A DNA stretch of 64,000 nucleotides from an uncultured Verrucomicrobiae bacterium (lineage in GTDB: Bacteria; Verrucomicrobiota; Verrucomicrobiia; Chthoniobacterales; UBA10450), in contig CAVYXA010000001.1 of the NCBI GenBank assembly GCA_963772365.1, positions 1,600,001 through 1,664,000 on the forward strand, written 5' to 3'. Shown here piece after piece: positions 13,460 through 61,765 of the stretch (position 1 is its first letter; each line of letters opens with the position of its first letter). Under the pieces are notes generated by a model that saw nothing but the letters and a program-made list of their open reading frames with translations, had not been told where the DNA came from and made no database searches. The position numbers were made by a program, and so were the translations under genes.

Positions 13460-14209
13460 ATGGATCGGAATGATGGCAGAAACAGCGAACAACTGCGCTC
13501 AATCCATTTCGACTTGAATATCGCGCGGCATGCCAGCGGTTCGGTCCTTGTTTCCACGGGCGATACGCGTGTGATTTGCGCCGTCACCATCGAGGAGACA
13601 GTGCCACGATGGATGACTGCGCAAAAGGTCAGCGGCGGATGGCTCAGTGCCGAATATTCGATGCTTCCGTATTCGACTCACACGCGCAAACCCCGCGATA
13701 TCACTCGCGGCCGGCTCGATGGTCGCAGCACGGAAATCCAGCGTTTGATAGGCCGATCTTTGCGCGCCGTTGTCGATCTTGGAAAACTGGGTGAGCGCAC
13801 AATGTGGATCGATTGCGATGTCCTCCAGGCCGACGGCGGAACTCGGACCGCGGCAATTACCGGCGCCAGTCTGGCCGTGGCAATCGGCTGCCAAAAACTG
13901 GTCCGGGAAAAATTGGTAGCGGAGTCGCCCGTTCGAAAACTAGTCGCAGCCGTAAGCGCCGGCATTCTTGATGGAAATGCGATTGTCGATCTTAACTATG
14001 AAGAAGACAAAGCCGTCACCGTCGATTTCAATCTTGTCGCGACTGAAGATGGCGAATTTGTAGAAGTGCAAGGCTCGGGCGAAGAAGCGGCGTTCACCCA
14101 ATCTCAAATGGATCAAATGCTCAGCCTGGCGCGCAAAGGCGTAGCCGAACTAATCGCGGCTCAGCGTGCAGTTTTGGCCCGAATGATGGTATCGCCACCC
14201 GAGAGCTAA
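13460..14209 (+). CDS. rph: Ribonuclease PH
   Basis: AEYSMLP, GRSTEIQRLIGRSLR, DCDVLQADGGTRTA, EVQG. Confidence 0.97.
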   Translation: MDRNDGRNSEQLRSIHFDLNIARHASGSVLVSTGDTRVICAVTIEETVPRWMTAQKVSGGWLSAEYSMLPYSTHTRKPRDITRGRLDGRSTEIQRLIGRSLRAVVDLGKLGERTMWIDCDVLQADGGTRTAAITGASLAVAIGCQKLVREKLVAESPVRKLVAAVSAGILDGNAIVDLNYEEDKAVTVDFNLVATEDGEFVEVQGSGEEAAFTQSQMDQMLSLARKGVAELIAAQRAVLARMMVSPPES

Positions 14210-14255
14210 ATCGTTTGCTCGTGCACGCTGTCTGCTTTAAACCGAGACCAATCTG

Positions 14256-15269
14256 ATGAAACGCGCGTTGATTACCGGCATCACGGGGCAGGATGGAAGT
14301 TATCTCGCCGATCTCCTGCTCGAGAAAGGCTATGAAGTTCACGGCATTATCCGCCGTGCCAGCACATTTAACACGTCGCGAATCGACCATCTCTACGCCG
14401 ATCCACACATCAACGGTGTGCGGATGTTTCTTCATTACGGCGATCTGAGCGATTCGGTCAATCTCGTTAAACTTGTCTATGAGTTGAAGCCGGACGAGGT
14501 TTATCATCTCGGCGCGCAAAGCCACGTCCGCGTCAGCTTCGATATCCCCGAATACACTTCGGACGTGACCGGGATTGGCACGATCCGAATTTTGGAAGCC
14601 ATCCGGGAAACCGGCGTTCGTTCCCGGTTTTATCAGGCGTCCAGCAGCGAAATGTTCGGCAAGGCACAGCAAGTTCCGCAAAGTGAAAAAACCCCATTCT
14701 GGCCTCGAAGCCCCTACGGCGTCGCCAAGGTTTTCGCTTACTGGGCCACGGTGAACTACCGCGAGAGCTACAGCCTCCACGCGAGCAACGGCATTTTGTT
14801 CAATCATGAAAGCCCGCGCCGCGGTGAGACCTTTGTGACACGGAAAATCTCACGCGCGGTGGCCGCCATTAAACAAGGCCTGCAACACGAACTGTTTTTG
14901 GGGAATCTCGATGCGAAGCGCGACTGGGGTTACGCGCCTGAATACGTCGAAGGCATGTGGCGGATTCTTCAGCAGGAGGACGGCAGCGATTTCGTGCTGG
15001 CCACCGGCGAAACGCACAGTGTGCGGGAGTTCGTCGAAGAAGCGTTTGCGCATGTTGATCTTGATTGGAAAAAATACGTGAAGCACGACGAGCGCTACGA
15101 ACGTCCGGCCGAGGTCGACTTGTTAATCGGGGATCCTTCCAAAGCCAAAAAGGTTTTGGGCTGGGAGCCGAAAGTGCGTTTCAAAGAGCTGGTCCGGATC
15201 ATGATTGATGCCGATTTGGAACTGCTCTCGCGTGAAACGCCGCGCAAACATCTCGGGAAACTTCCGTGA
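14256..15269 (+). CDS. gmd: GDP-mannose 4,6-dehydratase
   Basis: [46 protein letters not shown]. Confidence 0.97.
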
Positions 15270-15317
15270 CCATGGCAACAGTCCCGCACTCGCGCTGTTC
15301 AGGAAATAATCGCGCCC

Positions 15318-16592
15318 TTAATTATCGTTAAAGCTCGTATTGGCTGGGCCGAGCAGTCCTACTGTGTGGTAATACCCCGCAGCAACCGCAGTCACAATCC
15401 TGCTTGAGAGCGCTCCGATCAAGTTCACCGCGACCGGGGTTGTACGATTCGTGGTTGAGCCATCCCCAAGTTCTCCGTAACCGTTATTGCCCCAAGCATA
15501 GGCTCGCCCTTCGGAGGTTATCGCCATTGTGTGAACGCCACCCGCGGCGATCATAGTGACGGTCTTTCCCGCGAGTACGCCGCCCAAGAAAACCGCCACT
15601 GGCATCGAATTGTTAGTGATCGTGCCATTTCCCAATTGGCCGTAGCTGTTGTTGCCCCAGGCAAAAACGTCCCCGGCTGAAACCGATGCCACCGTATGGT
15701 CCCCGCCCGCGGCAATCGCAGTCACGATCTTCCCCGAAAGCACACCACTCGTGTCCACCGCTACAGGCCTTGTGCGATTAAAAACTGTGCCATCGCCCAG
15801 TTGTCCGTAGGTGTTGCGTCCCCATGTGTAGATTTTTCCCTCGGAAGTCAACGCCACCGTATGTTCGTCGCCCACCGCGATCGCCGTAACGATCTTGCCC
15901 GAGAGCACCCCGCTCATGTCCACAGCCACGGGCGTCGTACGACTAATAGTTGTGCCATCCCCCAGTTCTCCTTCGTTGTTGCGTCCCCACGCATAAATTA
16001 ACCCGTCGCGAGTTAACGCTGCGGTGTGGCTCTCGGCAGCTGCGATCGCGATCACGAACTTACCGAAGAGCGCTCCGGTGGTGTCCACCGCCACCGGCCT
16101 TGTTCGACTGGTTGTTGTGCCATCGCCCAGTTGTCCGTAGATGTTGTAACCCCAGGCATAGACGTTTCCATCCGAAGTGAGCGCCACTGTGTGGAAGAGA
16201 CCGGCGGAGATTGAGGTCACGAACTTGCCCAATAGTTCTCTGCGCATGTCAACCGCGACCGGGGTTGAGCGATTAATCGTCGTGCCATCACCCAATTGCC
16301 CAGCCCCGTTGTAGCCCCAGCCATAGATTTTCCCTTCGGAAGTCAGCGCCATGGTATGCGCGCCGCCCGCTACGATTCGAGTCACAACCTTGCCTGAGAG
16401 CACTCCGCTTCTATCTACCGCCACCGGCAGGTGCTGATTAGTATCGCTCCCGTCGCCTAGCTGTCCGAAAGAGTTATTGCCCCAGGCATACGGATCCGCC
16501 CCTCGCGCAACCGCACAGCAAACAAGAACCACAAGCGCGGCGACAAACGCCACAATCTTTGTAGTCGAAATGATACGGCGCCGCATCATCAT
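15318..16592 (-). CDS. Secreted RCC1/BLIP-II-type beta-propeller repeat protein
   Basis: Signal peptide followed by about 7 repeats of roughly 55 aa (Y.WG.N..GQLGDGT......PVAV...HT.AL). Confidence 0.9.
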
Positions 16593-16702
16593 GTTAGTTC
16601 CAAATCGGGGAACTGAGTTCTAGTCACGAACGCCGACGTGAGTAAAGGCATTTATTTCGGTTAGGGGAAATTTTCGCGCGCTCCCGTTCGATCTTCAAAC
16701 AA

Positions 16703-17317
16703 CTAGCGTTGGACCAGCGCGGGGCGATTCACGCCAAAGGGCGAAGCGGCAAGGCGAAGCGCGGGAACGACGCTCACCAGTGGAGCATCGACAATTGTCA
16801 CGTCTGCCCCACGGCCCACCAAATTATAGAGGTTGACGATGTCGCGTGACCGCATCCGGATGCATCCATAGCTGGCGGGCCGCCCAATGTTTCGCTCCTC
16901 TGGCGTTCCGTGAATGTAAATCCCGCGACGGTAGGCATTGGCGTTCTGACGTTCTATGCCTCGCAGCCAGAGGATACGCGTCACGATGGGATCACGTCCC
17001 GGTGAATCGATGGCTACGATCTCGCCAGTTCGGCGTCGATCCTTGAATACCGCGCCTAACGGAGCGCCATTACCGATTTTCTGCGCGACCTCGAGTTTTC
17101 CCAGTGGCGTACCATAACTCCCCGGTCGGTCACTTAGGCAAAACTTTGAACTCGAGACGGGATAGGTCGCGAGGAGTCTGCCCTGCTCGAGCACGGCCAA
17201 CCGTTCGTCGCGAACGCTAATGAGAACCTGATGTTGCGTGTCTGGGGCAGCGCAAGAGGCGAGAAAGAGTCCAATGATGATTGCTGTGAGCCGGGTAAAC
17301 AGATTATCCATCTTCAT
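16703..17317 (-). CDS. L,D-transpeptidase (YkuD family), lipoprotein
   Basis: Lipobox LASC; IYIHGT...SYGCIRM catalytic motif. Confidence 0.9.
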   Translation of the reverse strand: MKMDNLFTRLTAIIIGLFLASCAAPDTQHQVLISVRDERLAVLEQGRLLATYPVSSSKFCLSDRPGSYGTPLGKLEVAQKIGNGAPLGAVFKDRRRTGEIVAIDSPGRDPIVTRILWLRGIERQNANAYRRGIYIHGTPEERNIGRPASYGCIRMRSRDIVNLYNLVGRGADVTIVDAPLVSVVPALRLAASPFGVNRPALVQR

Positions 17318-18177
17318 TTCCGATCAAACCGGAAGAACTCTTCGGCAGTTGCGGTGGTTGCGCGAGCGATTTCTTCCAGGGAAATTCCGCGAGCGGCGGC
17401 AATCGACTCGGCCACCAGGCGAGTATGGGCCGGTTCGCAGCGTTTCCCGCGAAACGGAACTGGCGCAAGGTAAGGACAATCTGTTTCCACCATAAATCTA
17501 TCGAGCGGAGCCTGCGCTGCGACTGCACGAACATTTGCGCCGTTCTTGAACGTCACGATGCCAGTGAAGGAAACCAAGTGCCCAAGATCGAACACTTCAT
17601 TCGCCTGCTCGAGAGTTCTTCCAAAACAATGGAATACTCCACTGACCTGCCGGCCATACTCTCGCAAGATCGACAATGTATCGTCCCAGGCATCGCGTTG
17701 ATGAATCACTACATTCAGCCGCAATTCGACCGCCAAATCGAGTTGCTGCTCAAACAAGCTCGCCTGTTTGGATTTGTAAGCGCCATCGCGAATCCGGGCA
17801 TCGACATCTTGCCCGGTCTCGCTTTGCAACGCATGCATCACTTGCGCCCGTTTTTCTTTCGCAGCCTCAATGCTGGGCAGGTGATGATAATCCAGACCGA
17901 TCTCGCCGATCGCCACTACCTGCGGGTTTTTCGCCAGCTCCCGGAGCGGGGTTATCACGTCCTCTTCCGCTTGCTCGGCGTAGCTCGGATGAACACCTAT
18001 CACGGCGAAAATACTCGGATACTTCTCCGCAAGATCGACAGCGCGCCGGCTGCTCTCGACTGAAGTGCCGATGGTGAGAATTCGAGTGACTCCCGCATCA
18101 CTCGCCCGGCGGATTACGTCGTCGAAGTCGTTAGCGAAATCGGGATAATCGAGATGGGCGTGAGTTTCGATCAGCAT
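17314..18177 (-). CDS. tatD: TatD family hydrolase
   Basis: ETHAHL, GVHP, GEIGLDY, FHCF, ETDCPYL. Confidence 0.93.
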   Translation of the reverse strand: MLIETHAHLDYPDFANDFDDVIRRASDAGVTRILTIGTSVESSRRAVDLAEKYPSIFAVIGVHPSYAEQAEEDVITPLRELAKNPQVVAIGEIGLDYHHLPSIEAAKEKRAQVMHALQSETGQDVDARIRDGAYKSKQASLFEQQLDLAVELRLNVVIHQRDAWDDTLSILREYGRQVSGVFHCFGRTLEQANEVFDLGHLVSFTGIVTFKNGANVRAVAAQAPLDRFMVETDCPYLAPVPFRGKRCEPAHTRLVAESIAAARGISLEEIARATTATAEEFFRFDRK

Positions 18178-18192
18178 ATCGAAGATGCAAGA

Positions 18193-18269
18193 ATTAAAAG
18201 GTTACAAGGTTAGGCCGTTACAAAGGAAAAATTCTCCCATTTAACCATGTGACTTTTTAACCATTTAAC
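18193..18269. repeat. Inverted pair of degenerate 8-bp tandem arrays (GTTAMAAG-like x4, then CATTTAAC-like x4)
   Basis: ATTAAAAG GTTACAAG GTTAGGCC GTTACAAA ... CATTTAAC CATGTGAC TTTTTAAC CATTTAAC between fabH and tatD. Confidence 0.55.
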
Positions 18270-18284
18270 CTGCGCCGAAGGCGC

Positions 18285-19307
18285 TCACCATTCGATCACT
18301 GTGCTCGCCCAGGTAAGTCCACCGCCAAAAACGACCATCAATATGTAATCGCCCGGTTTGATCCGGCCGCTGCGATTGGCCTCATCGAGCGCAATGGCAA
18401 CAGCTGCCGCCGAGGTGTTTCCATATCGATCGAGGTTCACATAAAATTTTTCGATAGGAATCCCAAGTCGGTCGGCAATTCCTTCAATGATCCGCAGGTT
18501 CGCCTGGTGTGGGATGACACAGGAAATGTCGTCAATCGACAATCCGGCTTGCTCGAGCGCCTTGTTCGCGGCGCTTAGCATTGCGATCACCGCCTGCTTG
18601 TAGACCTCTTTGCCTGTCATGTGGATGGTGGCCAGGTTCATGTCGGCGTTGTCGCGCGTAATCGGGCAACGCGAGCCGCCGCCCGGCATGAATAGAATGT
18701 CACTGAATTGACCGTCGCTGCCGATGTAGGTGCTGATCACGCCGTGACTGCCGCCGCGGTGCCGCAAAATTGCCGCGCCAGCGCCGTCACCGAAAAGCAC
18801 GCAGGTGTTGCGATCCGTCCAGTTCGTGATCGACGTCAGTTTATCGGCGCCAATGACGAGAACGGTGTCGTAGGTGTGGGATCGGATGAATTGTTGGGCG
18901 ATTTCGATGGCAAAAAGAAATCCAGCGCACGCCGCGGAAACATCGAGGCAGGCAGCATTCGTGGCGCCGATTTTTTTCTGTACGAAACAGGCGGTCGCCG
19001 GAAAAAGCATGTCCGGTGTCGCCGTCGCGACGAGGATCAAATCAATTTCCTTGGATGAAATTTGCGCCTGCTCCATCGCCTTGAGGGCGGATTGGGTAGC
19101 CATGTCGCTGGTGTGTTCGTCCCTGGCGGCAATCCGCCGTTCTTTGATGCCGGTGCGAGTGGTAATCCATTCATCGCTGGTATCGACGATTCGCGACAAG
19201 TCCTCATTCGTCAGGATTTTTTCCGGCACATAGCTGCCGGTGCCGATGATCGAGACGGTCCGGATTGCTTTACCGGAGCGCGGGCTCGAGCGGGGCTGTG
19301 GTTTCAT
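18285..19307 (-). CDS. fabH: 3-oxoacyl-ACP synthase III
   Basis: AACAGF, LFGDGAGA, PHQAN, GNTSAA; follows plsX. Confidence 0.97.
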   Translation of the reverse strand: MKPQPRSSPRSGKAIRTVSIIGTGSYVPEKILTNEDLSRIVDTSDEWITTRTGIKERRIAARDEHTSDMATQSALKAMEQAQISSKEIDLILVATATPDMLFPATACFVQKKIGATNAACLDVSAACAGFLFAIEIAQQFIRSHTYDTVLVIGADKLTSITNWTDRNTCVLFGDGAGAAILRHRGGSHGVISTYIGSDGQFSDILFMPGGGSRCPITRDNADMNLATIHMTGKEVYKQAVIAMLSAANKALEQAGLSIDDISCVIPHQANLRIIEGIADRLGIPIEKFYVNLDRYGNTSAAAVAIALDEANRSGRIKPGDYILMVVFGGGLTWASTVIEW

Positions 19308-20301
19308 GATAACGGCGAATCTCTTTGACGATATGCGGATTGACCTGTTCTTCAATCGACTCCGCCGCCACGCGCAAGGCATTCTTGATTGCCAGCGGTG
19401 TGCTCGCGCCGTGCGCAATGATACAAATTCCGTTGACGCCAAGCAGCGGCATCCCGCCGTACTCTTCGTAATTCGTTTTATCTTTGATGACTCGAAACGC
19501 CTTGCGCGCCAGATAAGCGCCCACCATGTGGATCTTCGAACGCGTCAATTCATCCTTGAGCCATTTGAAAATTGCCACCGCGATCGATTCCGAGGTCTTC
19601 AGGATCACATTGCCCACAAAGCCATCGCATACGACTACCTCGACCGGCTTTTCAAACAAATGGCGACCCTCCACGTTGCCGCGAAAATTCAGCCCGCTCC
19701 CCTTCAACATGTGGAATACCTCCTTGGTCAACTCGGTCCCTTTCACATCTTCCTCCCCCAGCGAGATCAATCCCACGCTGGGTTTTTTGTAGCCGAGAAC
19801 ATGACGGGAATAAACCGATCCCATGATCGCGTACTGAAGAAGATGCTCGGGTCGCGAGTCAATATTGGCTCCCGCGTCGATCAGGACGAATTCGTTAAAC
19901 TGCGTCGGCAGCACCGCGGCAATTCCAGGCCGATAAATTCCCTCGAGGGTCCGCAATTTGATCATGCTGGCAGCAACTGCGGCGCCGGTGTGGCCGGCCG
20001 TGACGATGGCGTCCGCGTCGCCACGCTTCACGACATCGACAGCGCGGCTGACCGACGAATCCTTTTTTCGACGAACTGCGGACCATGCCCTGTCGCTCAT
20101 ATCCACGACCTGGCTGGAATGAACGATGTCGATCCTGCCGTCGTTAAAATGCAGCTTCTTTAATTCCGCCTCAATCTGAGGCGTGTCGCCGACCAAAAAT
20201 AGTTTGCTGATGCGCGAATACTCCTTGAGCGCCATGACAGCGCCAGCCACGAGATTCGGTGGGCCAAAATCGCCCCCCATCGCATCCAAGGCGATCTTCA
20301 T
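19270..20301 (-). CDS. plsX: Phosphate acyltransferase
   Basis: IALDAMGGD, AGHTGA, DAGAN, CDGFVGN..LK, GG..LLG. Confidence 0.97.
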   Translation of the reverse strand: MKIALDAMGGDFGPPNLVAGAVMALKEYSRISKLFLVGDTPQIEAELKKLHFNDGRIDIVHSSQVVDMSDRAWSAVRRKKDSSVSRAVDVVKRGDADAIVTAGHTGAAVAASMIKLRTLEGIYRPGIAAVLPTQFNEFVLIDAGANIDSRPEHLLQYAIMGSVYSRHVLGYKKPSVGLISLGEEDVKGTELTKEVFHMLKGSGLNFRGNVEGRHLFEKPVEVVVCDGFVGNVILKTSESIAVAIFKWLKDELTRSKIHMVGAYLARKAFRVIKDKTNYEEYGGMPLLGVNGICIIAHGASTPLAIKNALRVAAESIEEQVNPHIVKEIRRYHETTAPLEPALR

Positions 20302-20382
20302 TGCGGAGAGATTCTGCGGAGTTTACCCGCGCAATGCAAGTGACTTAAAGCGGGCGAGCGATATCCGTGCTCTCAGCCTGTG

Positions 20383-20565
20383 CTACTTCCCCTCGACAGT
20401 CAGGACCTGTCGACCTTTGTAATAGCCACAGGAAGGACAAACTGTGTGCGGCGCGACGGTGCTCCCGCACTGAGGGCATTTGTTCAAGTGAGGCGCATGC
20501 CAGCGATTGGCAGCCTTACGCGTGCGTAGCCGCATTTTCGACGTTTTGCGTTTCGGAACTCCCAT
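20383..20565 (-). CDS. rpmF: 50S ribosomal protein L32
   Basis: MGVPKRKTSK...CPQCG...PHTVCPSCGYYKG; yceD-rpmF-plsX synteny. Confidence 0.97.
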   Translation of the reverse strand: MGVPKRKTSKMRLRTRKAANRWHAPHLNKCPQCGSTVAPHTVCPSCGYYKGRQVLTVEGK

Positions 20566-20619
20566 AGAAGCGAATTAGGAAAGCAGGAAATCAGCAAAAG
20601 ACAAATGACTCCGCGGTTC

Positions 20620-21081
20620 TCAGTGTTTCAGTTTCAGCTTATCCAGCGCGCTCCAGTCCGATTTTCGCTCTGGTTCCAGCGGCGACGGTTTGGGAATTTT
20701 GCCCTTACAAATCCGGCCGCCATCTCGGTCGCAATGAGGATGAGCTGGCAAATTCAGCAACAAATCTTCTCGGATGAACGGCGTAAGATCGACAACTTCC
20801 GGACCTGCCAATTCCGTGTGCATGGCAAAGGTCGGGACATTGATCCGATGCACAAACCGCTCCAGACACGAAACACAGCGCAATTCCACCGGTTGCGAAA
20901 GCGAGCCCTTTGCCCAGAGTGCGCCGTTTCCCACGCCAATATCGATGTTGTAATGAAGCGGCCCGGCGCACGAGATATCTTCATTATCCAAACCCAATAG
21001 CTGGCAATCTTCATCGCCTTCGAGATGCAGTCCCTCGGCCGGGATTTGTTTGAGATGAATTTTCATTTCGCCCTGAGCCAA
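20620..21081 (-). CDS. yceD: YceD/DUF177 family protein
   Basis: C..CL, DLT..IRE.LLL.LP..P.C...C.G, W.AL..LK; upstream of rpmF. Confidence 0.9.
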   Translation of the reverse strand: MAQGEMKIHLKQIPAEGLHLEGDEDCQLLGLDNEDISCAGPLHYNIDIGVGNGALWAKGSLSQPVELRCVSCLERFVHRINVPTFAMHTELAGPEVVDLTPFIREDLLLNLPAHPHCDRDGGRICKGKIPKPSPLEPERKSDWSALDKLKLKH

Positions 21082-21101
21082 TTCTGAACTCCCTCCTCAA
21101 T

Positions 21102-21581
21102 TCATCGTTTGAATTTCCTGCCCAGCGCCTTGGCCACAATCTCCGGCACGAAGCTGGAGACATCGCCGCCCAGCCGCGCGATTTCTTTAATAATTCGCGA
21201 GCTCAAGTAAGTATATTCCTCTTTCGGCATCAGAAAAATTGTTTCCACCGAATTCCGAAGTTTCCGATTCATCAGCGCCATCTGGAATTCGAATTCGAAA
21301 TCCGATACCGCGCGCAGACCGCGAACAACTGCAACCGCTTTCTGGTCCACCGCGAAATCGACCAGCAATCCATCGAATCGCGCAATCTTGACGTTTTCGA
21401 CATTGGCAACCGTCGCCCGCAGCAAATCGAGCCGCTCTTCCAACGTAAAAAGGGCCTGCTTTTCCTCATTGTGCGCGATCGCCACAACGACTTCATCAAA
21501 CAGCTTGCGCGCCCGCTCGATGACATCGAGGTGCCCATTAGTCACTGGATCGAAACTGCCGGGATAAATCGCTCGTCGCAT
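21102..21581 (-). CDS. coaD: Pantetheine-phosphate adenylyltransferase
   Basis: YPGSFDPVTNGH, RGLRAVSDFEFE, SS..IKE. Confidence 0.97.
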   Translation of the reverse strand: MRRAIYPGSFDPVTNGHLDVIERARKLFDEVVVAIAHNEEKQALFTLEERLDLLRATVANVENVKIARFDGLLVDFAVDQKAVAVVRGLRAVSDFEFEFQMALMNRKLRNSVETIFLMPKEEYTYLSSRIIKEIARLGGDVSSFVPEIVAKALGRKFKR

Positions 21582-21590
21582 TTCCGAAGA

Positions 21591-21618
21591 ATCAAACATC
21601 AAACGTCAAACATCAAAC
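21591..21618. repeat. Heptamer tandem repeat (RTCAAAC x4)
   Basis: ATCAAAC ATCAAAC GTCAAAC ATCAAAC in the divergent coaD/usp intergenic region. Confidence 0.75.
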
Positions 21619-21672
21619 GTTCGTCGCTCCGGTTTGCTGAACCGGCGCGAAGCGGGAAGTTAATTGCTGTAG

Positions 21673-22503: not shown

Positions 22504-22548
22504 CCAAAAGCTTCAAATCGGTTTCGTGTTCAACGCCGGAATTTTTTC

Positions 22549-22642: not shown

Positions 22643-22660
22643 AGTCGGAAGACGATCTAG

Positions 22661-23424: not shown

Positions 23425-23432
23425 ATCATCTT

Positions 23433-50396: not shown

Positions 50397-50433
50397 CGGA
50401 GGGAACACCGTGGATTCCGCAGTGAAGCGATAA

Positions 50434-51670: not shown

Positions 51671-51703
51671 GAGATTCCAATTAGTCTGGCAAATATTAGC
51701 ATT

Positions 51704-52807: not shown

Positions 52808-52816
52808 GCCCAGTTG

Positions 52817-54991
52817 CTAATGCAACAATTTCTCGAGCGAGGGGTCACGATCGCTGCCGAGCGCCGTGGCTTTCGCATAGTGTTGCCTGGCGAGTTCTTT
52901 CGCCGGCGGTTCGGCGGTGGCATAAATCACCGCCAGATTGAAATGCGCGTCGGGATAATTGGGATTATTGGCCAGCGCCGCTAGCAATTCCTTTTCGGCT
53001 GCTTCCTGCCAGCCCTTCTGGCTGGCCGTGATCCCGAGATAATTATGAGCCGTGGCGCTTTTGGGATTGATCGCCAGCGCCTTGGTCAGTTCGGTGAGCG
53101 CAGCATCGAATTTCGATTGCCGATAGTACACGATCCCCAGTGTGGTATGAGCGAATTCGTCCCGGGGCGAGACCGCGACGGCTTTTTTCAACGTTAACTC
53201 CGCAGCCTTGAATCGGCCGGTGCGGAAATAAACAACACCAAGATTCGAGAGGGAATAAAGATTGTTCGGGCTCTTGATCAAAATCTCCTGATATTCTTTT
53301 TCAGCCGAACGATATTTGCCGCGCCCAAAATTCTGCTTCGCTTCGCGCGCCATCGGTAGCAAATCGTCCGGCAGGTCCGGTTTGAATCCGCTACCGCCAA
53401 TCTCCCCGGGGTTTTGTTCCGGAGCGTCCAATTTGTTAGCCGCATCGTTGTCATCATCGCCGGCATTGATCGTGACCGAAGTGGCGGTCGTTTTCTTGGC
53501 ATAGGCGAAACTCGCTTTCATCGTCGCGGGATTATTGTCCGAAATGGAAACAATGGGTTGCCGAAGAAGAGCTAGTTCGTCATCAGTCAACTTCGTGACC
53601 GGTTGGGCCAAAAGCTCGATCTGTTTGTTAAGCGTGTCGGATTTGATCCGAAGCTTGTCGAACTCTGCCAGCATCAATTTCTTGGCCTGCTCGCGGCGGG
53701 CTTCCTCCTGCCGCTCGCGCAAAACGATATTCCGCAGCATCTCATTCTCTTTGCGCAGGCGCATGGTTTCTTCCGCCGTCGCGCCTACCAATTTTGCTTT
53801 CGTGAGCTGGCTGGCCATCGAATCCAATTGCCCGCGCAGGTCCGCCACCATGACTTCGTAATCGCGGTTCTGTTTCTGGCTGGTGGCTAGTTGCTGTTGC
53901 AACTGGCCGATCTGACGTTTCACCTCAGCCAACTGCTGCTCCTTTTTTGGCTTGTCCTCGCTCAATTCCTGAACTGCCTTCTCGGCGGCAGCCAATTTCT
54001 TCTGCAATGTGGAATTTTCCGCCAGTAGCGCGTCGACACGCTGTTGGGCGTCTTTCGTTCCTTTGGCCTGAGCCAGGGCGTCATCCCGCTCTTTTGTCAT
54101 CGCGGTCAGACGCTTTTCCGCCTCGGCTATTTTCGTTTCCTTTTCCTTTTCGGCGGCGGCAACTTTTGTCTCTTTTTCCTTTTCCGCCGCGGCCCGGGCC
54201 GCTTCGGCGGCGAGCACGGCATCTTTTAGCCGTTTGATCTCGGCGCGCAAATCTCCCTCAGCCTTAGTATTCTTCTGGTCGGTTGCGGTCTGCGCTTTTT
54301 TTAATGCTTCCTGAGCCTTGACCAACTGGTCGCGTAGCTGGCGATCCGCGCCTTTCGGTTTCTGCAGGTCAGCCTGCGCCTGGTCCAGTTTCGAGTGGGT
54401 GTCTTTCAAACGGCTGTTGAGATCTTCTTTTTCCTTCTGAGCGACACCAAGCTGATTGCGTGATTTATCGAGCTCGGCCTGCAACTGATCCACTCTGGCG
54501 TTCAATTGCTTCGTCGCTTCCCGGATTGCGACTATCGGCGCCTGCGCGGGAGGTTCGGGAGCTCGCGTCGTTGTCGATGCATTTTTTGAGGCCGAAATTT
54601 CGGCGCTCGGCTGCCGCGAAGCGGTCGTCTTTTGTTCAGGCGCCGCTTCTGTTTCTGGCGGCGGCTCCGAAGTGGCGGCAAGATCTTTTTGCGTGGCAAT
54701 CTCGTCCTGAAGCCGGAGAATACTTTCGCTGATCTTGCGGCCGCGATAATCGACAATCGCCGGCTGCCAGTCGCCGTGATTCTTGCGGATTTCCTCGATC
54801 AAACTTCCAGCGAACCGATATTTTGCCAGCGCGGCTTTGAACTGGTTATCGTGCTCGAGTTTCTCGGCCTGTTGCGCGGTCATGTAGGCCTTGAGGAATA
54901 TCTCGCTCGGATCATCGGCCTGAGCGGAGAGACGCGGGGAAAGAAGTGCAAAAAAGAAACCGGCGAATAGAATCGACCCTATTCTTTTCAT
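52817..54991 (-). CDS. Secreted coiled-coil plus tetratricopeptide repeat protein
   Basis: Signal peptide, long heptad region, C-terminal TPRs (NLG..Y, AH.YLG, AHFNLA). Confidence 0.85.
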   Translation of the reverse strand: MKRIGSILFAGFFFALLSPRLSAQADDPSEIFLKAYMTAQQAEKLEHDNQFKAALAKYRFAGSLIEEIRKNHGDWQPAIVDYRGRKISESILRLQDEIATQKDLAATSEPPPETEAAPEQKTTASRQPSAEISASKNASTTTRAPEPPAQAPIVAIREATKQLNARVDQLQAELDKSRNQLGVAQKEKEDLNSRLKDTHSKLDQAQADLQKPKGADRQLRDQLVKAQEALKKAQTATDQKNTKAEGDLRAEIKRLKDAVLAAEAARAAAEKEKETKVAAAEKEKETKIAEAEKRLTAMTKERDDALAQAKGTKDAQQRVDALLAENSTLQKKLAAAEKAVQELSEDKPKKEQQLAEVKRQIGQLQQQLATSQKQNRDYEVMVADLRGQLDSMASQLTKAKLVGATAEETMRLRKENEMLRNIVLRERQEEARREQAKKLMLAEFDKLRIKSDTLNKQIELLAQPVTKLTDDELALLRQPIVSISDNNPATMKASFAYAKKTTATSVTINAGDDDNDAANKLDAPEQNPGEIGGSGFKPDLPDDLLPMAREAKQNFGRGKYRSAEKEYQEILIKSPNNLYSLSNLGVVYFRTGRFKAAELTLKKAVAVSPRDEFAHTTLGIVYYRQSKFDAALTELTKALAINPKSATAHNYLGITASQKGWQEAAEKELLAALANNPNYPDAHFNLAVIYATAEPPAKELARQHYAKATALGSDRDPSLEKLLH

Positions 54992-55281
54992 CCGACAGCG
55001 AGGCGGAATGATAGTCCGCTCCTGTCCAGTTGCAATCCAGCCTTCCACGCGGTTTTGAGAATAAGCGGAGAGCGTGCCAACGAGAGCTCCAAATTAAAAG
55101 CGCCAAATTCCAAGATTCAAAATTGGAGCTCTCACGCTTCCCTCGGAATGGTACAGCTCAATTTCTCCATTCATTTAGCGCCGCAATCTTTTCGTTTGCC
55201 CTGCTGACGGCTCGGCACGGCACGGTTGCCTTTCGTTGAGAAAACCTTAAGCTCTTTTCCCCGCGAAGACGCAGACGAGAT

Positions 55282-55357
55282 GGTGGTCGTAGCTCAATGG
55301 TAGAGCCCCAGATTGTGGTTCTGGTTGTTGCGGGTTCGAGTCCCGTCGACCACCCCA
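55282..55357 (+). tRNA. tRNA-His (GTG)
   Basis: G-1, acceptor GTGGTCG/CGACCAC, anticodon arm CCAGA-TTGTGGT-TCTGG, TTCGA T-loop, encoded CCA. Confidence 0.97.
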
Positions 55358-55425
55358 GATTATTGTCGATTGTTCGAGTGGCGTTCTTGCAGTTTCGAAT
55401 AGACAATGGACAATCAAATTTCCCT

Positions 55426-55499
55426 GTGTCTGTAGCTCAACTGGATAGAGCATCTGACTTCGGATCAGAAGGTTGGGGGTTCGAATCCCTCCAGACACG
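55426..55499 (+). tRNA. tRNA-Arg (TCG)
   Basis: Acceptor GTGTCTG/CAGACAC, anticodon arm TCTGA-CTTCGGA-TCAGA, TTCGAAT T-loop; CCA not encoded. Confidence 0.95.
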
Positions 55500-55517
55500 A
55501 TCCGCTGCTGGTGAAGA

Positions 55518-57098
55518 TCAGGGTTTCCTCTTGAAAACCACGAGGCTGCATCGTTCGACATCAACTTTTGCCAAAGGTTCCTGCCAGCCAGAAGTCTTGT
55601 CGCCTATCAAATAACCGCCCACAAGATCGTATCTTTCATTGAGAACCTTGTTCAGGTAATCTAAAAAACCTGGAGGAGTCGTGCGTTGGCTCAACCAGCT
55701 CGTGGCCAGACGGACGATCGCAACAACCGCAGGAGGCCGCGACTCCAGATCGTGGATCGCTTCCGATTGATAACGCTCCGCGACAGTCGTTGGAATCATT
55801 AACGGATAGATAATTGCGAATCGAGAACAACTGAACCGGTCGGCGTAATAAAGGATTTGCGGTTCCGATCCCGCGATGAACACGCAATCTTTGGGCGAGG
55901 TCAGTCTCTTTACGTGACCGGCGACCAGCTTCGATTCAAGAAATGGGCTCCATGTTTTCATCTTCGCGGCGGCGAAATCTTTCTTGCTGGCTAGTAACGA
56001 AGGAACATCAGGTAGACACGCTCCGATCACCAAGACAGCTGTTAGCGCTGAGCCGAACCAGGACGGCAGCGTCAGTCGTGTTCGTCTTAGTCGGCAATCA
56101 AGGTTGTGAATCCCGATCGCGACGAGCAGCGCCCAAAACGGCATAACGGTCACATAATATTGCCGATACGGGCTGCCGGCGGTTGTCATCCACGCGGCCA
56201 GAAAAATCAGCGTCCAAAAAAATGTTCGCGGCCATCGGCCGACTAGAATCAGGCCGAGCGAAGGAAATAAAAACCACCACGCGATCCAAAGTTCCTGCAG
56301 CCGGTGGCCCAGGTTCCTCCACCCAAATGTCGCGGCGGCGTATGATTGGTTGTATTCAATTGTGCATTCCCAAAGCGACCTGCCACCATCGTGGATTAGA
56401 AAAAAAACCAGCGCTGCTAGCGTCGCGGCGGTGACGCCTAACAAGGCGAAGAACCAGCATTTCGCCAGGTGACTCACGCTCCGTTTCCGACGCCATTCAT
56501 CGAGCGACGCGGCGACGAATAGCAAGACGCACAATGGGAACGACGTGTATTTGTAACAGATCGCTACCGCGCCCAGAACGCCGCCGGTCAGCCAATATCC
56601 GGGGCCGCCGCCCGAGTGACGAGCGCGCACGTAGACGGCCAGCGTGCCCATTACCGGCAGAAGCATGAACATCTCAGTGTTTGCCGTGAATTGAGTGATC
56701 CCAGGCAAAAGGATCATTGGCGTCATCAGCCACATCGCGGAAAACGAGACACTTCTTCCAAACTCCTTTTGGCCGATGTAACCGAGTAGACACGTCGCCA
56801 GCCCAGCGAATAAGTAAGCCAGGATACGAGGAAACCAGTAGAGACCCGGCGCGACCAAATTAGCCAATAGATAGGTGTAAATCACCATTGGCGGTTTTTG
56901 CAGAAAGGAGTTTTGATATGGTGCGAGCCCATGTCTGAGGAGTTGTGCTGCATAGGCGTATTCGCCTTCATCGCGAATCAGGGGCGCATCGTAACTATTC
57001 CAGCGCAACGCCAGAAAAAGCAGCACGAGTCCGATAATCCCCGCCCAACTCCGTCCGCTTGTCCTGACTTTCGAAACACGATTCGAGTCCGATTCCAT
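55518..57098 (-). CDS. GT-C glycosyltransferase (ArnT/PMT, GT39/83-like)
   Basis: RDEGEY, KPP, NTE.F, many TMs, C-terminal periplasmic domain. Confidence 0.8.
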   Translation of the reverse strand: MESDSNRVSKVRTSGRSWAGIIGLVLLFLALRWNSYDAPLIRDEGEYAYAAQLLRHGLAPYQNSFLQKPPMVIYTYLLANLVAPGLYWFPRILAYLFAGLATCLLGYIGQKEFGRSVSFSAMWLMTPMILLPGITQFTANTEMFMLLPVMGTLAVYVRARHSGGGPGYWLTGGVLGAVAICYKYTSFPLCVLLFVAASLDEWRRKRSVSHLAKCWFFALLGVTAATLAALVFFLIHDGGRSLWECTIEYNQSYAAATFGWRNLGHRLQELWIAWWFLFPSLGLILVGRWPRTFFWTLIFLAAWMTTAGSPYRQYYVTVMPFWALLVAIGIHNLDCRLRRTRLTLPSWFGSALTAVLVIGACLPDVPSLLASKKDFAAAKMKTWSPFLESKLVAGHVKRLTSPKDCVFIAGSEPQILYYADRFSCSRFAIIYPLMIPTTVAERYQSEAIHDLESRPPAVVAIVRLATSWLSQRTTPPGFLDYLNKVLNERYDLVGGYLIGDKTSGWQEPLAKVDVERCSLVVFKRKP

Positions 57099-57156
57099 TA
57101 GAAGTTTAATAATCTTCTTCTTGTTTTGGTCAGTCTTTTTAAAATAGCGAACACAA

Positions 57157-57840
57157 ATGAAGCTTACGGCCTCGCGCTTCGAGCTCGATTCGATGGTTCG
57201 AGACATCGAGCTCACACTGGTCAGCATCATTCAAGGTGTGGCGCTGACCGTGTTGATCGAAAACGCGAAAGATGTGATGACGAAAATGGACTGGCCAGCC
57301 TGGCCTTATGTGCTGGCCGGCTTGTTCGTCATATTCGTTTTCTGGTCGCGAGCCGTGTTGCACATCATCACGGTGATTCGCTGGCCGCTCGAGTTCGGAC
57401 ACAACTTTCTTTACGTCGCCTGCGCCCTGGTGGAATCCCTCGCTTTTTCGCAACTGGCTACACCGGCGCGTTGGTTCGGATTCGGCGCGGGTTTCATTGC
57501 CGCTGGCTGGCTCCTGTTTGCCTACGATGTTCGCCTCATCCGGGCCCGAATGGAGGATAGCGCCGGGGAATCGAGTAATCGGTTATTCGCGCTCGTAATG
57601 CGCGACCAATGGCTGAATCTCGGTCTGCTTTTGCCGGCTGTTTTCGTATTGAACCTCGCCTGTGCATTGTCGATCCGCGCCTGGCCGGAAATTCTTCTGG
57701 CCGCAAACGGTCACCTTTGGCTGATTGGGGCACAGTTGATCGCGTTCGTCGTCTACTTGTTTTACGTGGTGAAATTTTATGGCCGGCTCGCGCCCTTGAT
57801 CGATCAAGCGCGAGCGGAATGGCAGATCAAAGAGGAATAG
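57157..57840 (+). CDS. Hypothetical multi-pass membrane protein
   Basis: 227-aa ORF with about 6 hydrophobic segments. Confidence 0.7.
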   Translation: MKLTASRFELDSMVRDIELTLVSIIQGVALTVLIENAKDVMTKMDWPAWPYVLAGLFVIFVFWSRAVLHIITVIRWPLEFGHNFLYVACALVESLAFSQLATPARWFGFGAGFIAAGWLLFAYDVRLIRARMEDSAGESSNRLFALVMRDQWLNLGLLLPAVFVLNLACALSIRAWPEILLAANGHLWLIGAQLIAFVVYLFYVVKFYGRLAPLIDQARAEWQIKEE

Positions 57841-58005
57841 ACGACTCGAAAATCGAGCGCCGAAATTCCGCGCAGTTGTTTTTCGGCCAAACCAGACGAT
57901 ACTTCAGCGTTTCATTCGGATGAGTATCGGCAACAGGGTGAAACCGCAAAGTTCCCCCGAACATCGGTAAAGCGAGAACTCGTTATCGGGTTGGAGAAAA
58001 AACTT

Positions 58006-58209
58006 ATGATACCCACAGCCAAAAAGAATGGACCGGTCATTAAACGCATTCTGGTCCGATGCCCTTCCACCGCGAAACTGACTTCAACGGGTCAAACTGT
58101 TGAGGAACAGCTCTGGCCTACGACAAAACTGAAAAGCCAGCGCTTCAACTGTTCCCATTGCGGGCAGACCCACACTTGGAACAAAAAAGACGTCGTTCTG
58201 GCGCGATAA
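58006..58209 (+). CDS. Small basic zinc-ribbon-like protein
   Basis: GGAG RBS at 57993; CPST...CSHCGQTHTW; 67 aa. Confidence 0.7.
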   Translation: MIPTAKKNGPVIKRILVRCPSTAKLTSTGQTVEEQLWPTTKLKSQRFNCSHCGQTHTWNKKDVVLAR

Positions 58210-58277
58210 CGCGTCCCAGCCTTTAGCAGGTCCGAATCGACGACGCTTTCTCGTTTCGATAACATCGACAGCTCTCG

Positions 58278-59234
58278 ATGAAGACGATTCGGAGGACTGG
58301 TCCGCCGGATCGGTTGCGCCTGACGAAGCGCAGCCGGATCGCGCGAAGTCGATGGGTGGTTCCAACTGTCGATCAAATCATGGCCGAGGAACGCGCAGCT
58401 GCGTTCACCAGACGCAGCATTAAGGGTTCGGCCAAACTGCAAGGCCTCAAGATGGCGGTCTCGATGATGGATCTGACCACGCTCGAAGGAAAGGATACGC
58501 CCGGCAAAATTGCGTTCCTCTGCCGCAAAGCGATGCAACCTCTCGATCCGCGCTACGATGTTCCCCCATGCGCCGCAGTTTGTATTTATCCAAACCTGGT
58601 GCCGTTCGCTAAGAAATTTCTCGGCATTTCGCGAGTCAAAGTCGCATCTGTAGCCACGGCATTCCCGACCGGACTGATGCCGTTGAAACTAAAACTCGAA
58701 GAAGTTCGCGGTGCCGTGCGAGATGGCGCGGACGAAATCGATATGGTGATCGATCGGGGCGCTTTTCTGACCGGCGATCATGGCCGGGTATTCGATGAGA
58801 TCGCTGCTACGAAAGAGGCGTGCGGAAGCGCGCACCTTAAAGTGATTCTCGAAACTGGCGAGCTGCAAATCTACGACAACGTTCGCATCGCCAGCGAGAT
58901 CGCGATGCGCGCCGGCGCAGATTTCATCAAAACATCGACAGGAAAAATTTCGCCCGCCGCGACGATGCCGGTCACCTTGGTGATGCTCGAGGCAATCCGC
59001 GATTATTTTTACGCAACGGGTATTCGCATCGGGATGAAACCGGCCGGAGGAATTCGCACCGCCAAACAAGCTCTCGGATATCTCGTGATGGTGAAGGAAA
59101 CCCTGGGCGACGACTGGCTCACGCCAGAGTTGTTCCGCTTCGGCGCCAGCACATTGGTCAACGATGTTCTCATGCAAATCGTGAAGATCGTGGATGGAAA
59201 TTATCAGGCGCCGGACTATTTTTCTCTGCCCTGA
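58278..59234 (+). CDS. deoC: Deoxyribose-phosphate aldolase (long type)
   Basis: DLTTLEG.D, GADEIDMV, LKVILETGEL, FIKTSTGK, KPAGGIR, RFGAS. Confidence 0.95.
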   Translation: MKTIRRTGPPDRLRLTKRSRIARSRWVVPTVDQIMAEERAAAFTRRSIKGSAKLQGLKMAVSMMDLTTLEGKDTPGKIAFLCRKAMQPLDPRYDVPPCAAVCIYPNLVPFAKKFLGISRVKVASVATAFPTGLMPLKLKLEEVRGAVRDGADEIDMVIDRGAFLTGDHGRVFDEIAATKEACGSAHLKVILETGELQIYDNVRIASEIAMRAGADFIKTSTGKISPAATMPVTLVMLEAIRDYFYATGIRIGMKPAGGIRTAKQALGYLVMVKETLGDDWLTPELFRFGASTLVNDVLMQIVKIVDGNYQAPDYFSLP

Positions 59235-59292
59235 GCGGCGCGTTGGCGAGCGAGCGGCTGGCTAAATTCCATGGAGGATCGACATTTGATCC

Positions 59293-59748
59293 TCATCTTA
59301 GCCGCGGATCATACCGGAAACGCGCTGGCTTTGCGACCCACTCAAGCCGGAACTGCGGATGCCGCGGATTAATCAACGCATTGCTTTCCACTGGCACTAT
59401 TACGCTCGGCACGACTAACGCCGCGCTGCGCTGTGCTGCGATCCATTCATCGCCCGCTGTACGGCTCCCGGCGCTAACCGGCTCTGCGTCCCATTGTTTG
59501 GGCAACGGACGCAATTCCTCGACCAGCCGATCAGGCACCTCGATCGCAAAGAGCCAGCGTTCTTCCGACTCCCGCAGCGTCCGGACGTGCACAAGAGTTT
59601 CGAGACAGGCCAGCGCTACCGAGCTCGAAGTGTAAACGAGACGTGTGCCGAGGGAATTCCAACGGCCCGCAGCATGCAGGCCGCCTTCTCCGCTAAACGC
59701 CTGCGACGGCTTTGGGCGATCGAGCGTTTCGAGGCGATAGAACGTCAC
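59293..59748 (-). CDS. RES family toxin (NAD+ phosphorylase-type)
   Basis: YR, SGEGG....GRWN, YTS.S..LA.LE..VH, VPS, N..INP.H; GTG start overlaps the antitoxin stop (GTGA). Confidence 0.92.
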   Translation of the reverse strand: MTFYRLETLDRPKPSQAFSGEGGLHAAGRWNSLGTRLVYTSSSVALACLETLVHVRTLRESEERWLFAIEVPDRLVEELRPLPKQWDAEPVSAGSRTAGDEWIAAQRSAALVVPSVIVPVESNALINPRHPQFRLEWVAKPARFRYDPRLR

Positions 59749-60170
59749 GCATAAACTCCCCACTTGATGGATTGCAGGAGATTAGTGACTTCCTGCGCGC
59801 CTACGTCGGTATCGAGCAACTCGAGCGGGCGTTTTCCGCCTAACGCGGGGATCTGGTCGTTTACCCATTGCCGCGCCTTGTCTTCACTCCCGAGCACTTC
59901 GCTGGCCTGGGTAAACACGCGCGCCACGCGCAAACTCTTCTCGGCTTCATCGGCGGAAAGCCGGCGGGATTTCCGCTTGCGCAACGTCTGGGCGTTGATG
60001 TGCAGCCTGCGCGCGAGCGCTTCCTTTCCGACACCGAGCGCACTTGCCAACTGATCGAACACCTGCGCCGCAATTCCTTTGCGAATGGTTTCGATCTGCT
60101 CCAGCGGCGATAGCGCCGCAATGGCAGCCACTTTGGCAGTGGGTCCTTTCTGTCGGGAGATTGTCGGCAT
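59745..60170 (-). CDS. Xre/MbcA/ParS antitoxin
   Basis: IRKG, HTH, A.EVLG....A..W.....ALGG..P..LL.T..G...V..LL..I..G. Confidence 0.92.
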   Translation of the reverse strand: MPTISRQKGPTAKVAAIAALSPLEQIETIRKGIAAQVFDQLASALGVGKEALARRLHINAQTLRKRKSRRLSADEAEKSLRVARVFTQASEVLGSEDKARQWVNDQIPALGGKRPLELLDTDVGAQEVTNLLQSIKWGVYA

Positions 60171-60182
60171 GCTTCAGGATAA

Positions 60183-60198
60183 ACGGTAATTCTACCGT
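60183..60198 (-). promoter_or_regulatory. Putative TA autoregulatory operator overlapping a -10 box
   Basis: Palindrome ACGGTA-ATTC-TACCGT overlapping minus-strand TAGAAT, 13-28 nt upstream of the antitoxin ATG. Confidence 0.5.
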
Positions 60199-60243
60199 AA
60201 GCAACTGGTAAATCTACTCATTTCGCGCCAGTTGATGCGCGAT

Positions 60244-60939
60244 CTACTTCTCCCTGCCCTGAGCAGCCGCCGCATTTTCTGGCAACCGGGCCACGCCGGT
60301 TCGCAGAAATTTTTTGCCGCTTGGGCAAAGGCGAAAGACTTCGCATTGGCCGCAATCCGGCTTGCGAGCGTAACAGCGCCGGCGGCCATGCCAGATGAGC
60401 CAATGACTCCAATTTGTCCAATGCTCGCGTGGCACGAGTTTCATCAGGTCGCGCTCGATTTTTTCCGCGTCGGAATGTTTCGTTAGGCCGAGGCGTTGCG
60501 ACAGCCGAATCACGTGGGTATCCGCCACGATCCCCTCGTCTTTATGGAAGGCATTCCCCAGCACCACGTTTGCGGTCTTGCGGCCAACACCGGGCAGATC
60601 GACCAGCGCTTCCATTGTCGATGGTAATTTGCCGCCATGTTTTCCTGCAATCACGCCCATCGCTCCGCGAATGCTTTTGGTTTTGCTGCGGAAAAAACCG
60701 GTCGATTTGATCGCGTTCTCCAGCTCGGTCTGCGGCGCATTAGCGTAATCTCTAGCCGTCCGATATTTCCTGAACAGGGCCGGCGTAACTATGTTTACTC
60801 GTTTGTCGGTGCATTGGGCCGACAGAATCGTGGCGACAAGCAGCTGGAGAGGATTGCGAAAATCGAGCTCGCAATGCGCATTGGGATAAATCTTTGGCCA
60901 GACCTTAACAAGTTCGGCCACACGTTCGCGCGCGGTCAT
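60244..60939 (-). CDS. nth: Endonuclease III
   Basis: LSAQCTD..VN, LPGVGRKTANV, DTHV.R, C..RKP.C..C.....C. Confidence 0.95.
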   Translation of the reverse strand: MTARERVAELVKVWPKIYPNAHCELDFRNPLQLLVATILSAQCTDKRVNIVTPALFRKYRTARDYANAPQTELENAIKSTGFFRSKTKSIRGAMGVIAGKHGGKLPSTMEALVDLPGVGRKTANVVLGNAFHKDEGIVADTHVIRLSQRLGLTKHSDAEKIERDLMKLVPREHWTNWSHWLIWHGRRRCYARKPDCGQCEVFRLCPSGKKFLRTGVARLPENAAAAQGREK

Positions 60940-60994
60940 CTGCCAACTATTTCTGTCGCTGTCGATCTTGCAACAGATTAGCGTCTGCCAAAGA

Positions 60995-61765
60995 ATGCGA
61001 TCCGCGCGATTAATTCTGATTCTCGGCTTTGTTCTCGCGAAAACGGGACTGGCTGAATGGCAGGTTGTTCACGCAACCGGCGAGCCCTCGGCGGAATCGC
61101 TCGTTATTCATCGCCATATTACCGTGACGGAATCGCAGACCGGGGAGCGGGCCGTTGTCGATCTTGCCATTTTCTCCTCGAAGTCATGCACCTTGCGCGT
61201 GATTGAAAATAAGAACGGCGAGACCAATCTCGCTGAAGCCGTGAAGAGTGGCGGATGTGTAGCCGGCGTGAACGGTGGTTACTTCGACGCCGAGTTTCAG
61301 CCCATTGGGTTACGAATCATTAAGGGGAAAACGATCTCGCTTTTGAAGCGGGCGAAATTATTAACCGGTGTCCTGGAGGTGACCCCGCATCAGTCGAAAA
61401 TCGTGCGGTCCAGCGAATTTTCGATGAAACAAAAACTGCTCTCGGCGATTCAGTGCGGGCCATTCCTTGTCGATGCTGACCGGCGCGTTCGCGGTTTGAA
61501 CGATTCGCGGCCGGCCCGGCGAACATTTGCTCTCATAACACGCGGCAATCGCGCCGCGCTCGGCGTTTGCTCGGAAATCACTCTGGCTCAACTGGCCGAA
61601 ATCTTGGCCACGCTTCCGCTGATTGATGATCTCAAGACAGCGCGTGCATTGAATCTCGATGGCGGATCATCCACTGGATTCTGGTTTGCGCGCGAAAACG
61701 GCGATGCATTTTCCATCTCCGAGCAAAAGCCGGTTCGCGATTTCGTAGCGATTGCTCCAAAATAA
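60995..61765 (+). CDS. Phosphodiester glycosidase (NAGPA-like) family protein
   Basis: Signal peptide, NGGYF, GP.LV, RT, ALNLDGGSS. Confidence 0.85.
   Translation: MRSARLILILGFVLAKTGLAEWQVVHATGEPSAESLVIHRHITVTESQTGERAVVDLAIFSSKSCTLRVIENKNGETNLAEAVKSGGCVAGVNGGYFDAEFQPIGLRIIKGKTISLLKRAKLLTGVLEVTPHQSKIVRSSEFSMKQKLLSAIQCGPFLVDADRRVRGLNDSRPARRTFALITRGNRAALGVCSEITLAQLAEILATLPLIDDLKTARALNLDGGSSTGFWFARENGDAFSISEQKPVRDFVAIAPK

Follow-up and report, generated by a model that had tools for sequence, protein, structure and literature searches.

A candidate DNA self tag: an asymmetric ten-base word dispersed through one clade of a Chthoniobacterales family

The word in the window

The window is a stretch of 64,000 nucleotides (C1:1600001-1664000) from the 3.35 Mb genome, in six contigs (G000), of an uncultured member of the Chthoniobacterales whose family we take to be the one containing Ca. 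Udaeobacter. Dispersed through it is an asymmetric ten-base word, AAGATCGACA (word A; reverse complement TGTCGATCTT). The 21 copies of TGTCGATCTT and nine of its C-variant TGTCGATCCT give 30 matches to TGTCGATCYT, compared with 0.37 in dinucleotide shuffles (the largest of 100 shuffles holds 2). An earlier note on this DNA had listed the 21 exact copies and eight of the variant, each of which lies where it was placed; the ninth, at 59275 on the minus strand, had been overlooked. As the note also remarked, the base 5' of the 21 exact copies is never G; genome-wide this base is T in 48%, A in 36%, C in 12% and G in 4%.

We called genes with a hexamer model of our own, which gave 3302 genes and 84% of the DNA as coding, with some error in the frames. 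These independent calls uphold the earlier view that the word also stands in frames other than that of VDL (LSIL, RIDI, VGST) and between genes (43008 and 60960). The EDRH reading at 41057, read by hand, agrees with the open reading frame 40654-41730; the name yyaL given to it is the earlier note's label only. The features are as follows.

1..13770: end of a surface-polysaccharide gene cluster, zero copies of the 10-mer
13771..13780, plus strand: word A (TGTCGATCTT) in rph (VVDL)
13984..13993, plus: word A in rph (IVDL)
17666..17675, minus: word A in tatD (LSIL frame)
18031..18040, minus: word A in tatD (AVDL)
20127..20136, plus: variant TGTCGATCCT, antisense in plsX (RIDI)
20785..20794, minus: word A (VVDL)
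21936..21945, plus: word A (DVDL)
23332..23341, plus: word A (IVDL)
23567..23576, plus: word A in kdsA (DVDL)
26470..26479, plus: word A (DVDL)
28968..28977, plus: word A (DVDL)
29115..29124, plus: word A (TVDL)
30087..30096, plus: variant CCT (IVDP)
33494..33503, plus: variant CCT, antisense (VGST)
35008..35017, minus: variant CCT (LSIL)
35202..35211, minus: variant CCT (VVDP)
38577..38586, minus: word A, outside called genes
41057..41066, minus: word A, antisense in open reading frame 40654-41730 (EDRH)
43008..43017, minus: word A, intergenic
46103..46112, minus: variant CCT
47173..47182, minus: variant CCT
47366..47375, plus: variant CCT (LSIL)
49683..49692, minus: word A, gene edge or intergenic
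51799..51808, plus: word A in a GT4 glycosyltransferase (IVDL)
52177..52186, plus: word A in GT4 (IVDL)
52636..52645, plus: word A in GT4 (IVDL)
52776..52785, plus: word A in GT4 (LSIL)
59275..59284, minus: variant CCT, absent from the earlier list
60960..60969, plus: word A, intergenic, upstream of nth
61156..61165, plus: word A (VVDL)
16784..62354: ten more copies of a C-variant, A-R-C-ATCGACA, about 12-fold enriched genome-wide (starts 16784, 31684, 32147, 34164, 50602, 51889, 58261, 58931, 61468 and 62345)

Two tRNAs are the only Rfam matches in the window. The genes at 33978-36183 (TonB-dependent receptor) and 37779-39182 (CBS-domain) each seem split into two open reading frames, by frameshift or assembly error.

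Enrichment and consensus

Word A is the commonest 10-mer of the genome, with 1048 copies against 21, 31 and 105 expected from order-3, order-4 and order-5 Markov models. The related 10-mers AGGATCGACA and AACATCGACA occur 483 and 299 times. The genome-wide count proposed in the earlier note thus finds the word enriched throughout (1048 against 31 at order 4), and the amino-acid-preserving shuffle proposed with it leaves the count unexplained: the copies within genes number 913, compared with about 50-68 in per-gene synonymous shuffles that keep each protein, and 912, compared with 55, under a null that keeps both proteins and codon context (16.6-fold). An artefact of codons or composition is ruled out by these three nulls. 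A mobile-repeat origin is ruled out by the flanks of the copies, which are alike for just one base on each side, and an RNA-level signal by the enrichment of both orientations in genes (360 and 553 against about 36 and 27). The k-mers that follow word A in enrichment genome-wide are repeat words of a REP-like kind (GCCCTACAA, CTCAGAATGAC).

Consensus of word A

Its consensus reads A-R-S-A-TCGA-C-A-W: the TCGA core is strict and the flanks are graded. Under the protein-fixed, codon-context null, mismatches in the core stand at 0.3-2.3 times expectation and flank mismatches at up to 20 times, the AGG, AAC and AGC variants being enriched 20-, 12- and 12-fold. GATC is dispensable, as AACATCGACA is enriched 12-fold. 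The palindromic version TGTCGACA is depleted (0.5-fold), as is GTCGAC (0.5-fold), and CGATCG is rarer than its order-4 expectation. No AT-rich flanks surround the word in this genome. The consensus of word A is sharper in the related genome G189, where 300 kb hold 429 exact copies and every single-mismatch variant has at most 21. The whole words AAGATCGACA, TGTCGATCTT, GATCGACA and TGTCGATC were not found in the literature, nor was anything on word A in work on uptake, motifs and methylomes of Verrucomicrobia, Udaeobacter or Chthoniobacterales, in searches whose coverage leaves out most subscription papers.

Imprint on proteins

The four most enriched tripeptides of the proteome are KID, VDL, DVD and IVD, and their reversed controls are not enriched: KID occurs 456 times (132 expected) and VDL 785 times (342 expected), with 97 DIK and 281 LDV. 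This reversed-tripeptide test was used by Findlay and Redfield (PMC2817400) for the DNA uptake sequences (DUS) and uptake signal sequences (USS) of other bacteria. Of the possible sites, 261 of 311 in the K-I-D frame and 458 of 739 in the V-D-L frame carry the word. Compared with the orthologues of six genomes that lie outside the clade described below and are poor in the word, amino-acid identity is 54% at word codons (325/600) and 68-70% nearby (806/1184 at adjacent codons; p about 1e-8); compared with five word-rich genomes it is 499/633 at word codons and 888/1256 at adjacent ones. Because identity at word codons is below that of their neighbours in the first comparison and above it in the second, word A has altered amino acids and was afterwards retained.

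The sister species G001 shares 28 of 106 word sites with this genome (187 alignments, in which four-fold sites are 43% identical). At positions that encode VDL in both genomes the word is used in 25 of 28 cases here and in 24 of 28 in G001; such use despite 43% four-fold identity implies a force active in both lineages. Together with the nulls and the protein imprint, this supports the earlier proposal that selection, or a drive, acts on the DNA rather than on the protein.

Distribution along the chromosome

Across the word-rich group a copy recurs every 0.6 to 4 kb, on either strand. Full native bins of 100 kb hold 28-62 copies, with no restriction to one chromosome domain, and stretches of 15-21 kb without the word exist. 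The leading strand carries 479 of 973 copies (p=0.65, four skew-defined segments). There is thus no replichore bias, and the polarity of Chi sites or FtsK-orienting polar sequences (KOPS), which the earlier note had entertained, falls away. Whatever their orientation, two copies lie within 300 bp of each other at 0.75 of the expected frequency (280 pairs against 372), where 40 control word sets gave 1.05+/-0.08 with a minimum of 0.87; in G189 there are 170 such pairs against 246 expected. No helical periodicity was seen in the spacing. Of 16 close pairs inspected in the densest genomes, 12 are not spanned by an open frame, yet no T-runs follow. In G007 a 9-base AT-rich spacer separates 5 of 12 head-to-head word pairs, possibly a small palindromic element.

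The word is scarce in DNA that appears foreign or accessory. The polysaccharide cluster that overlaps the window start holds 1 copy of the broad word in 20.3 kb, compared with about 12 expected, an integron cassette array holds 1 word A copy in 5.4 kb, and the contig ends C1:1-60000 and C3:775000-832895 (66-75% GC) hold 2 copies in about 120 kb. Genes shared with G001 carry 106 copies in 162.6 kb (about 650/Mb), against about 485/Mb in all native genes. The densest genes are housekeeping genes, and the long genes that lack the word read, by their sequences, as restriction, surface and accessory genes; a contrast between core and accessory genes, which the earlier note had proposed to check, is thus seen. 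The two contig ends contain actinobacterial-looking genes with almost no word A or second word (see below), and are probably chimeric joins. Also on C1, at 93075-101968, lies a type V-B CRISPR locus with an 871-residue protein of the Cas12b family (229.6 bits against a cut-off of 150, by a model 1253 long), a Cas4/Cas1 fusion, Cas2 and six repeats; the short length of the Cas12b-family protein may be real or may mark an assembly break.

Phylogenetic range

Densities were taken as TGTCGATCYT per Mb in 355 genomes of the family, copies being divided by rounded genome sizes. They are 1283-1637/Mb in group g45, 1048 in g7, 200-800 in g1, g9, g11, g15, g17, g23, g40, g48 and g50, 65-826 in g41, about 25-408 in g10, and about 3-32 in g2, g4, g6, g8, g16, g19, g21, g47 and g51. 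None of 298 genomes from other families of the Verrucomicrobiota exceeds about 19/Mb. Several of the tallies, that of the 355 genomes among them, take in genomes marked as unpublished, on which no conclusion depends. In a quick RpoB tree of 27 rows (G013 gave no match, and the fragments G018 and G029 were omitted) all word-rich genomes fall inside one clade of 12 rows (SH-aLRT 95), four of which are word-poor; outside it the exact word reaches at most 14/Mb. The enrichment therefore extends to relatives, at up to 1637/Mb, and the lineage specificity suspected in the earlier note is supported, the word being confined to one clade of one family.

A second word

A second word, TCGTTAGGC (word B), is dispersed in genes of family members outside the word A clade at up to 441/Mb, and reaches at most about 5/Mb in 16 genomes of other families. 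It is also enriched 8-fold in genes of G000. Three copies lie in the window.

17054..17061, minus: word B (CGTTAGGC)
59838..59845, minus: word B (CGTTAGGC)
60481..60488, plus: word B (CGTTAGGC)

GTTAGGC is an integron core, and word B equals this crossover core. It adjoins the integron integrase gene in G000 and sits in cassette-like arrays in the outgroup genome G028. The integron of G000 (C1:1244000-1250463) consists of an integrase and a cassette array with GTTAGAY cores at its sites.

G189 is dense in both words. Within 300 bp it has 170 A-A pairs against 246 expected, 41 B-B pairs against 65, and 269 A-B pairs against 246; as each word avoids itself and not the other, these counts are read as two independent readers for words A and B. 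The A-B pairs of G000 show a slight dip (48 against 58 with the 8-base B, 104 against 126 with the 7-base B). That A replaced B as a dialect is rejected by the density of both in G189 and by the word-poor genera of the clade, which show no new word in 33-80 kb samples; that they are arms of one site is rejected by the lack of fixed spacing. No E. coli-like dif was found. A third over-represented word, TTAGCCGAC / TTAGCCAGC, occurs in G006.

We suggest tentatively that the family may have two independent sequence-specific self-recognition codes, an older, family-wide TCGTTAGGC and a younger AAGATCGACA of the clade, the reader of the younger being unrelated to ComP and independent of ComEA. If so, they would represent a selective DNA-acquisition or self-marking system outside the Proteobacteria, in a very abundant soil lineage.

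A candidate uptake tag and its machinery

Sequence-specific uptake tags have been described for the Neisseriaceae and Pasteurellaceae. Word A may be a lineage 'self' tag of this kind, for uptake or recombination, a reading to which we give a probability of roughly 45%. A sequence-specific reader would have arisen once, in one clade of this family, and would favour fragments with A-R-S-A-TCGA-C-A-W for entry via the type IV pilus, secretin and ComEC. Recombination of the tagged fragments would proceed via DprA, RecA and ComM, and word-bearing alleles would spread by molecular drive into each position that the protein tolerates. The bacteria would be competent, with the bias acting at uptake, and the 300-bp scale of self-avoidance may reflect short DNA fragments, to which a second tag adds little.

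Uptake genes are present in G000: comEC (766 residues), dprA, comM, two pilA, pilB, pilC, two pilT-like genes, secretins, recA, mutS and mutL. Of 80 genomes, 75 have comEC, and in 66 the gene runs without a stop for about 690 residues or more. The earlier note had pointed to comEA, comEC and type IV pilin genes as worth seeking; comEC and the pilus genes are there, the ComEA-like gene survives as a remnant and a ComP-like pilin was not found. Within the genus g41, genomes with any ComEA-like trace have 426-826 words/Mb and those with none 65-465 (5 against 9 genomes, p=0.004), in a post hoc comparison whose traces may belong to a paralogue.

Several observations weigh against an uptake tag. 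The presence of comEC is independent of word density, and the gene is split in word-rich G007. Of the family's only ComEA-like gene, which combines SNase and HhH, G000 keeps a frameshifted N-terminal remnant of about 95 codons (C1:675019-675334), and the HHH_3 domain has no match in this genome. Among 33 genomes with at least 200 words/Mb, 6 have an apparently intact copy of this gene and 13 no match to it; among 47 word-poor genomes it is apparently intact in 29, of which 23 belong to one genus, in a tally where kin are not independent and the role of the gene in uptake is assumed. No basic pilin of the ComP type was found (ComP_DUS scores reach at most 21.6 bits, below the 27.3 cut-off), and the two minor pilins profiled across genomes, g917 and g1351, were rejected as the reader since their patterns (29/70 and 58/70 genomes) mismatch the word. 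A literature search found no account of competence in this bacterial group. Non-coding DNA, 16% of the total, holds 188 of 1531 copies, with no intergenic excess. Close inverted pairs are not in excess here (4 head-to-head within 60 bp) or in G189 (45 against about 62 by our own estimate), and a test for inverted pairs in transcription terminators was negative. The uptake reading of the earlier note fits the genomic statistics, but no protein that reads the word was found, and the ComEA-like gene of G000 is broken.

Alternative explanations

The main alternative is an intracellular, clade-specific DNA-binding protein: a nucleoid organiser, a factor for repair or of the SMC type, or a defence factor that marks self. 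It would need sites 1-2 kb apart, regardless of their orientation, and direct selection would keep them. We consider this less likely than an uptake tag. Such a protein would account for a word density independent of comEC and the ComEA-like gene, and for G001, which has no ComEA-like match and keeps the word at 24 of 28 shared VDL positions at 43% four-fold identity. The similar coding and non-coding densities, flat chromosome distribution, depletion of close pairs and lack of terminator pairing also suit such a protein. However, no candidate was found, there is neither helical periodicity nor a positional domain of the kind known for matS, SlmA and Noc sites, and 15-21 kb stretches lack the word. 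The range of about 10 to 1637/Mb inside the clade would be odd for an essential chromosome function.

It is improbable that the word is made and kept by a methylation-linked ratchet, in which a methylase and biased repair act without selection at each site, as in the HIP1 model of cyanobacteria (PMC4390886). A solitary beta-class DNA methylase is encoded at G000 C4:28032-28889 and is present in 70 of 71 family genomes and in 0 of 9 from other families of the order; the TCGA core is palindromic, and mutS and mutL are present. Against this, the conserved regions of the methylase are alike in word-A, word-B and word-free genomes and its gene contains stops in word-rich G001. The orphan methylase, invariant while the word varies, is thus not supported as its determinant. 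Structure and homologue comparison gave no site specificity for it, and no C5 methylase was found. The word is asymmetric, with its palindrome TGTCGACA depleted 0.5-fold, GATC is dispensable, and self-avoidance to 300 bp is not predicted by a ratchet. The HIP1-type methylation link raised in the earlier note is accordingly weak.

Equally improbable is another drive of transfer or recombination, through a packaging-start site (transduction or a gene-transfer agent) or secondary tyrosine-recombinase sites, word B being equal to the integron crossover core. The position of word B beside the integrase gene here and in the cassette-like arrays of the outgroup genome favours this, and ComEA would not be needed. 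However, the cassette sites here use GTTAGAY, with one word A in the 5.4 kb array, words A and B show neither fixed spacing nor mutual avoidance, and no phage of this host that is rich in the word came to light. Two scans for paired words yielded 95 loci, 10 of them with at least four words and none of these with a protein match to G000, and 19 viral loci reached via two integrases, with no assigned host, have 0-3 words each.

A polar signal like Chi or KOPS, or a side effect of codon or oligonucleotide bias, would suit a short, asymmetric word on a high GATC/TCGA background but is refuted for this genome by the leading-strand share (479/973), the 16.6-fold excess over the protein-fixed null and relatives that have a similar GATC/TCGA bias without the word, and could be revived, with very little probability, only if the draft contigs hide many inversions.

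Returning to a self tag, the single origin, the more than 100-fold range of density and the second, independent word provide a natural experiment on the birth and decay of a word and the reshaping of a proteome. Word A marks native against foreign DNA in assemblies of this clade; it would predict the DNA that these uncultured bacteria may accept, and could aid genetic tools. An intracellular reader would instead point to an undescribed chromosome-binding system.

Comparison with known systems

The sites matS, SlmA and Noc are palindromic, number tens of copies and are restricted to regions. Word A is dispersed like these protein-binding sites; unlike them, it has about 2000 copies that are evenly spread. 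Chi (RecBCD/AddAB) and KOPS (FtsK) are short, asymmetric and over-represented words, as is word A, which differs from them in having no replichore polarity. With HIP1 (GCGATCGC, cyanobacteria) it shares a very high in-gene density and a CGATC-like core, and a family-wide orphan methylase exists; it differs in being non-palindromic, in a CGATCG count below the order-4 expectation, in the lack of a C5 methylase and in a methylase that does not vary with the word.

The closest likeness is to DUS (Neisseriaceae, read by the minor pilin ComP) and USS (Pasteurellaceae). Word A is unrelated to them in sequence, belongs to another phylum and makes no use of terminators or inverted repeats. It lacks the AT-rich flanks of USS, no ComP-like pilin as for DUS was found, and the ComEA-like gene is often lost. 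DUS and USS have one dialect per species, whereas here a single genome has two unrelated words that are independent of each other. DUS and USS are reported to show no orientation bias (PMC1939737) and to leave a tripeptide imprint (PMC2817400), uptake sequences have a strict inner core with weaker flanks and are scarce in new DNA (PMC7811141), with a core-genome bias in permissive positions (PMC2397512), and about half of DUES lie within predicted terminators (10.1101/2025.10.24.684340). Word A is not classed as DUS or USS because the terminator and ComP features, when tested, were absent. Like them, it is about 10 bp long, asymmetric, unoriented, present in 1000-2000 copies and restricted to a family, with a tripeptide imprint, a strict core and weaker flanks, scarcity in new DNA and a core-genome bias; in its genomic statistics, word A behaves like an uptake sequence.

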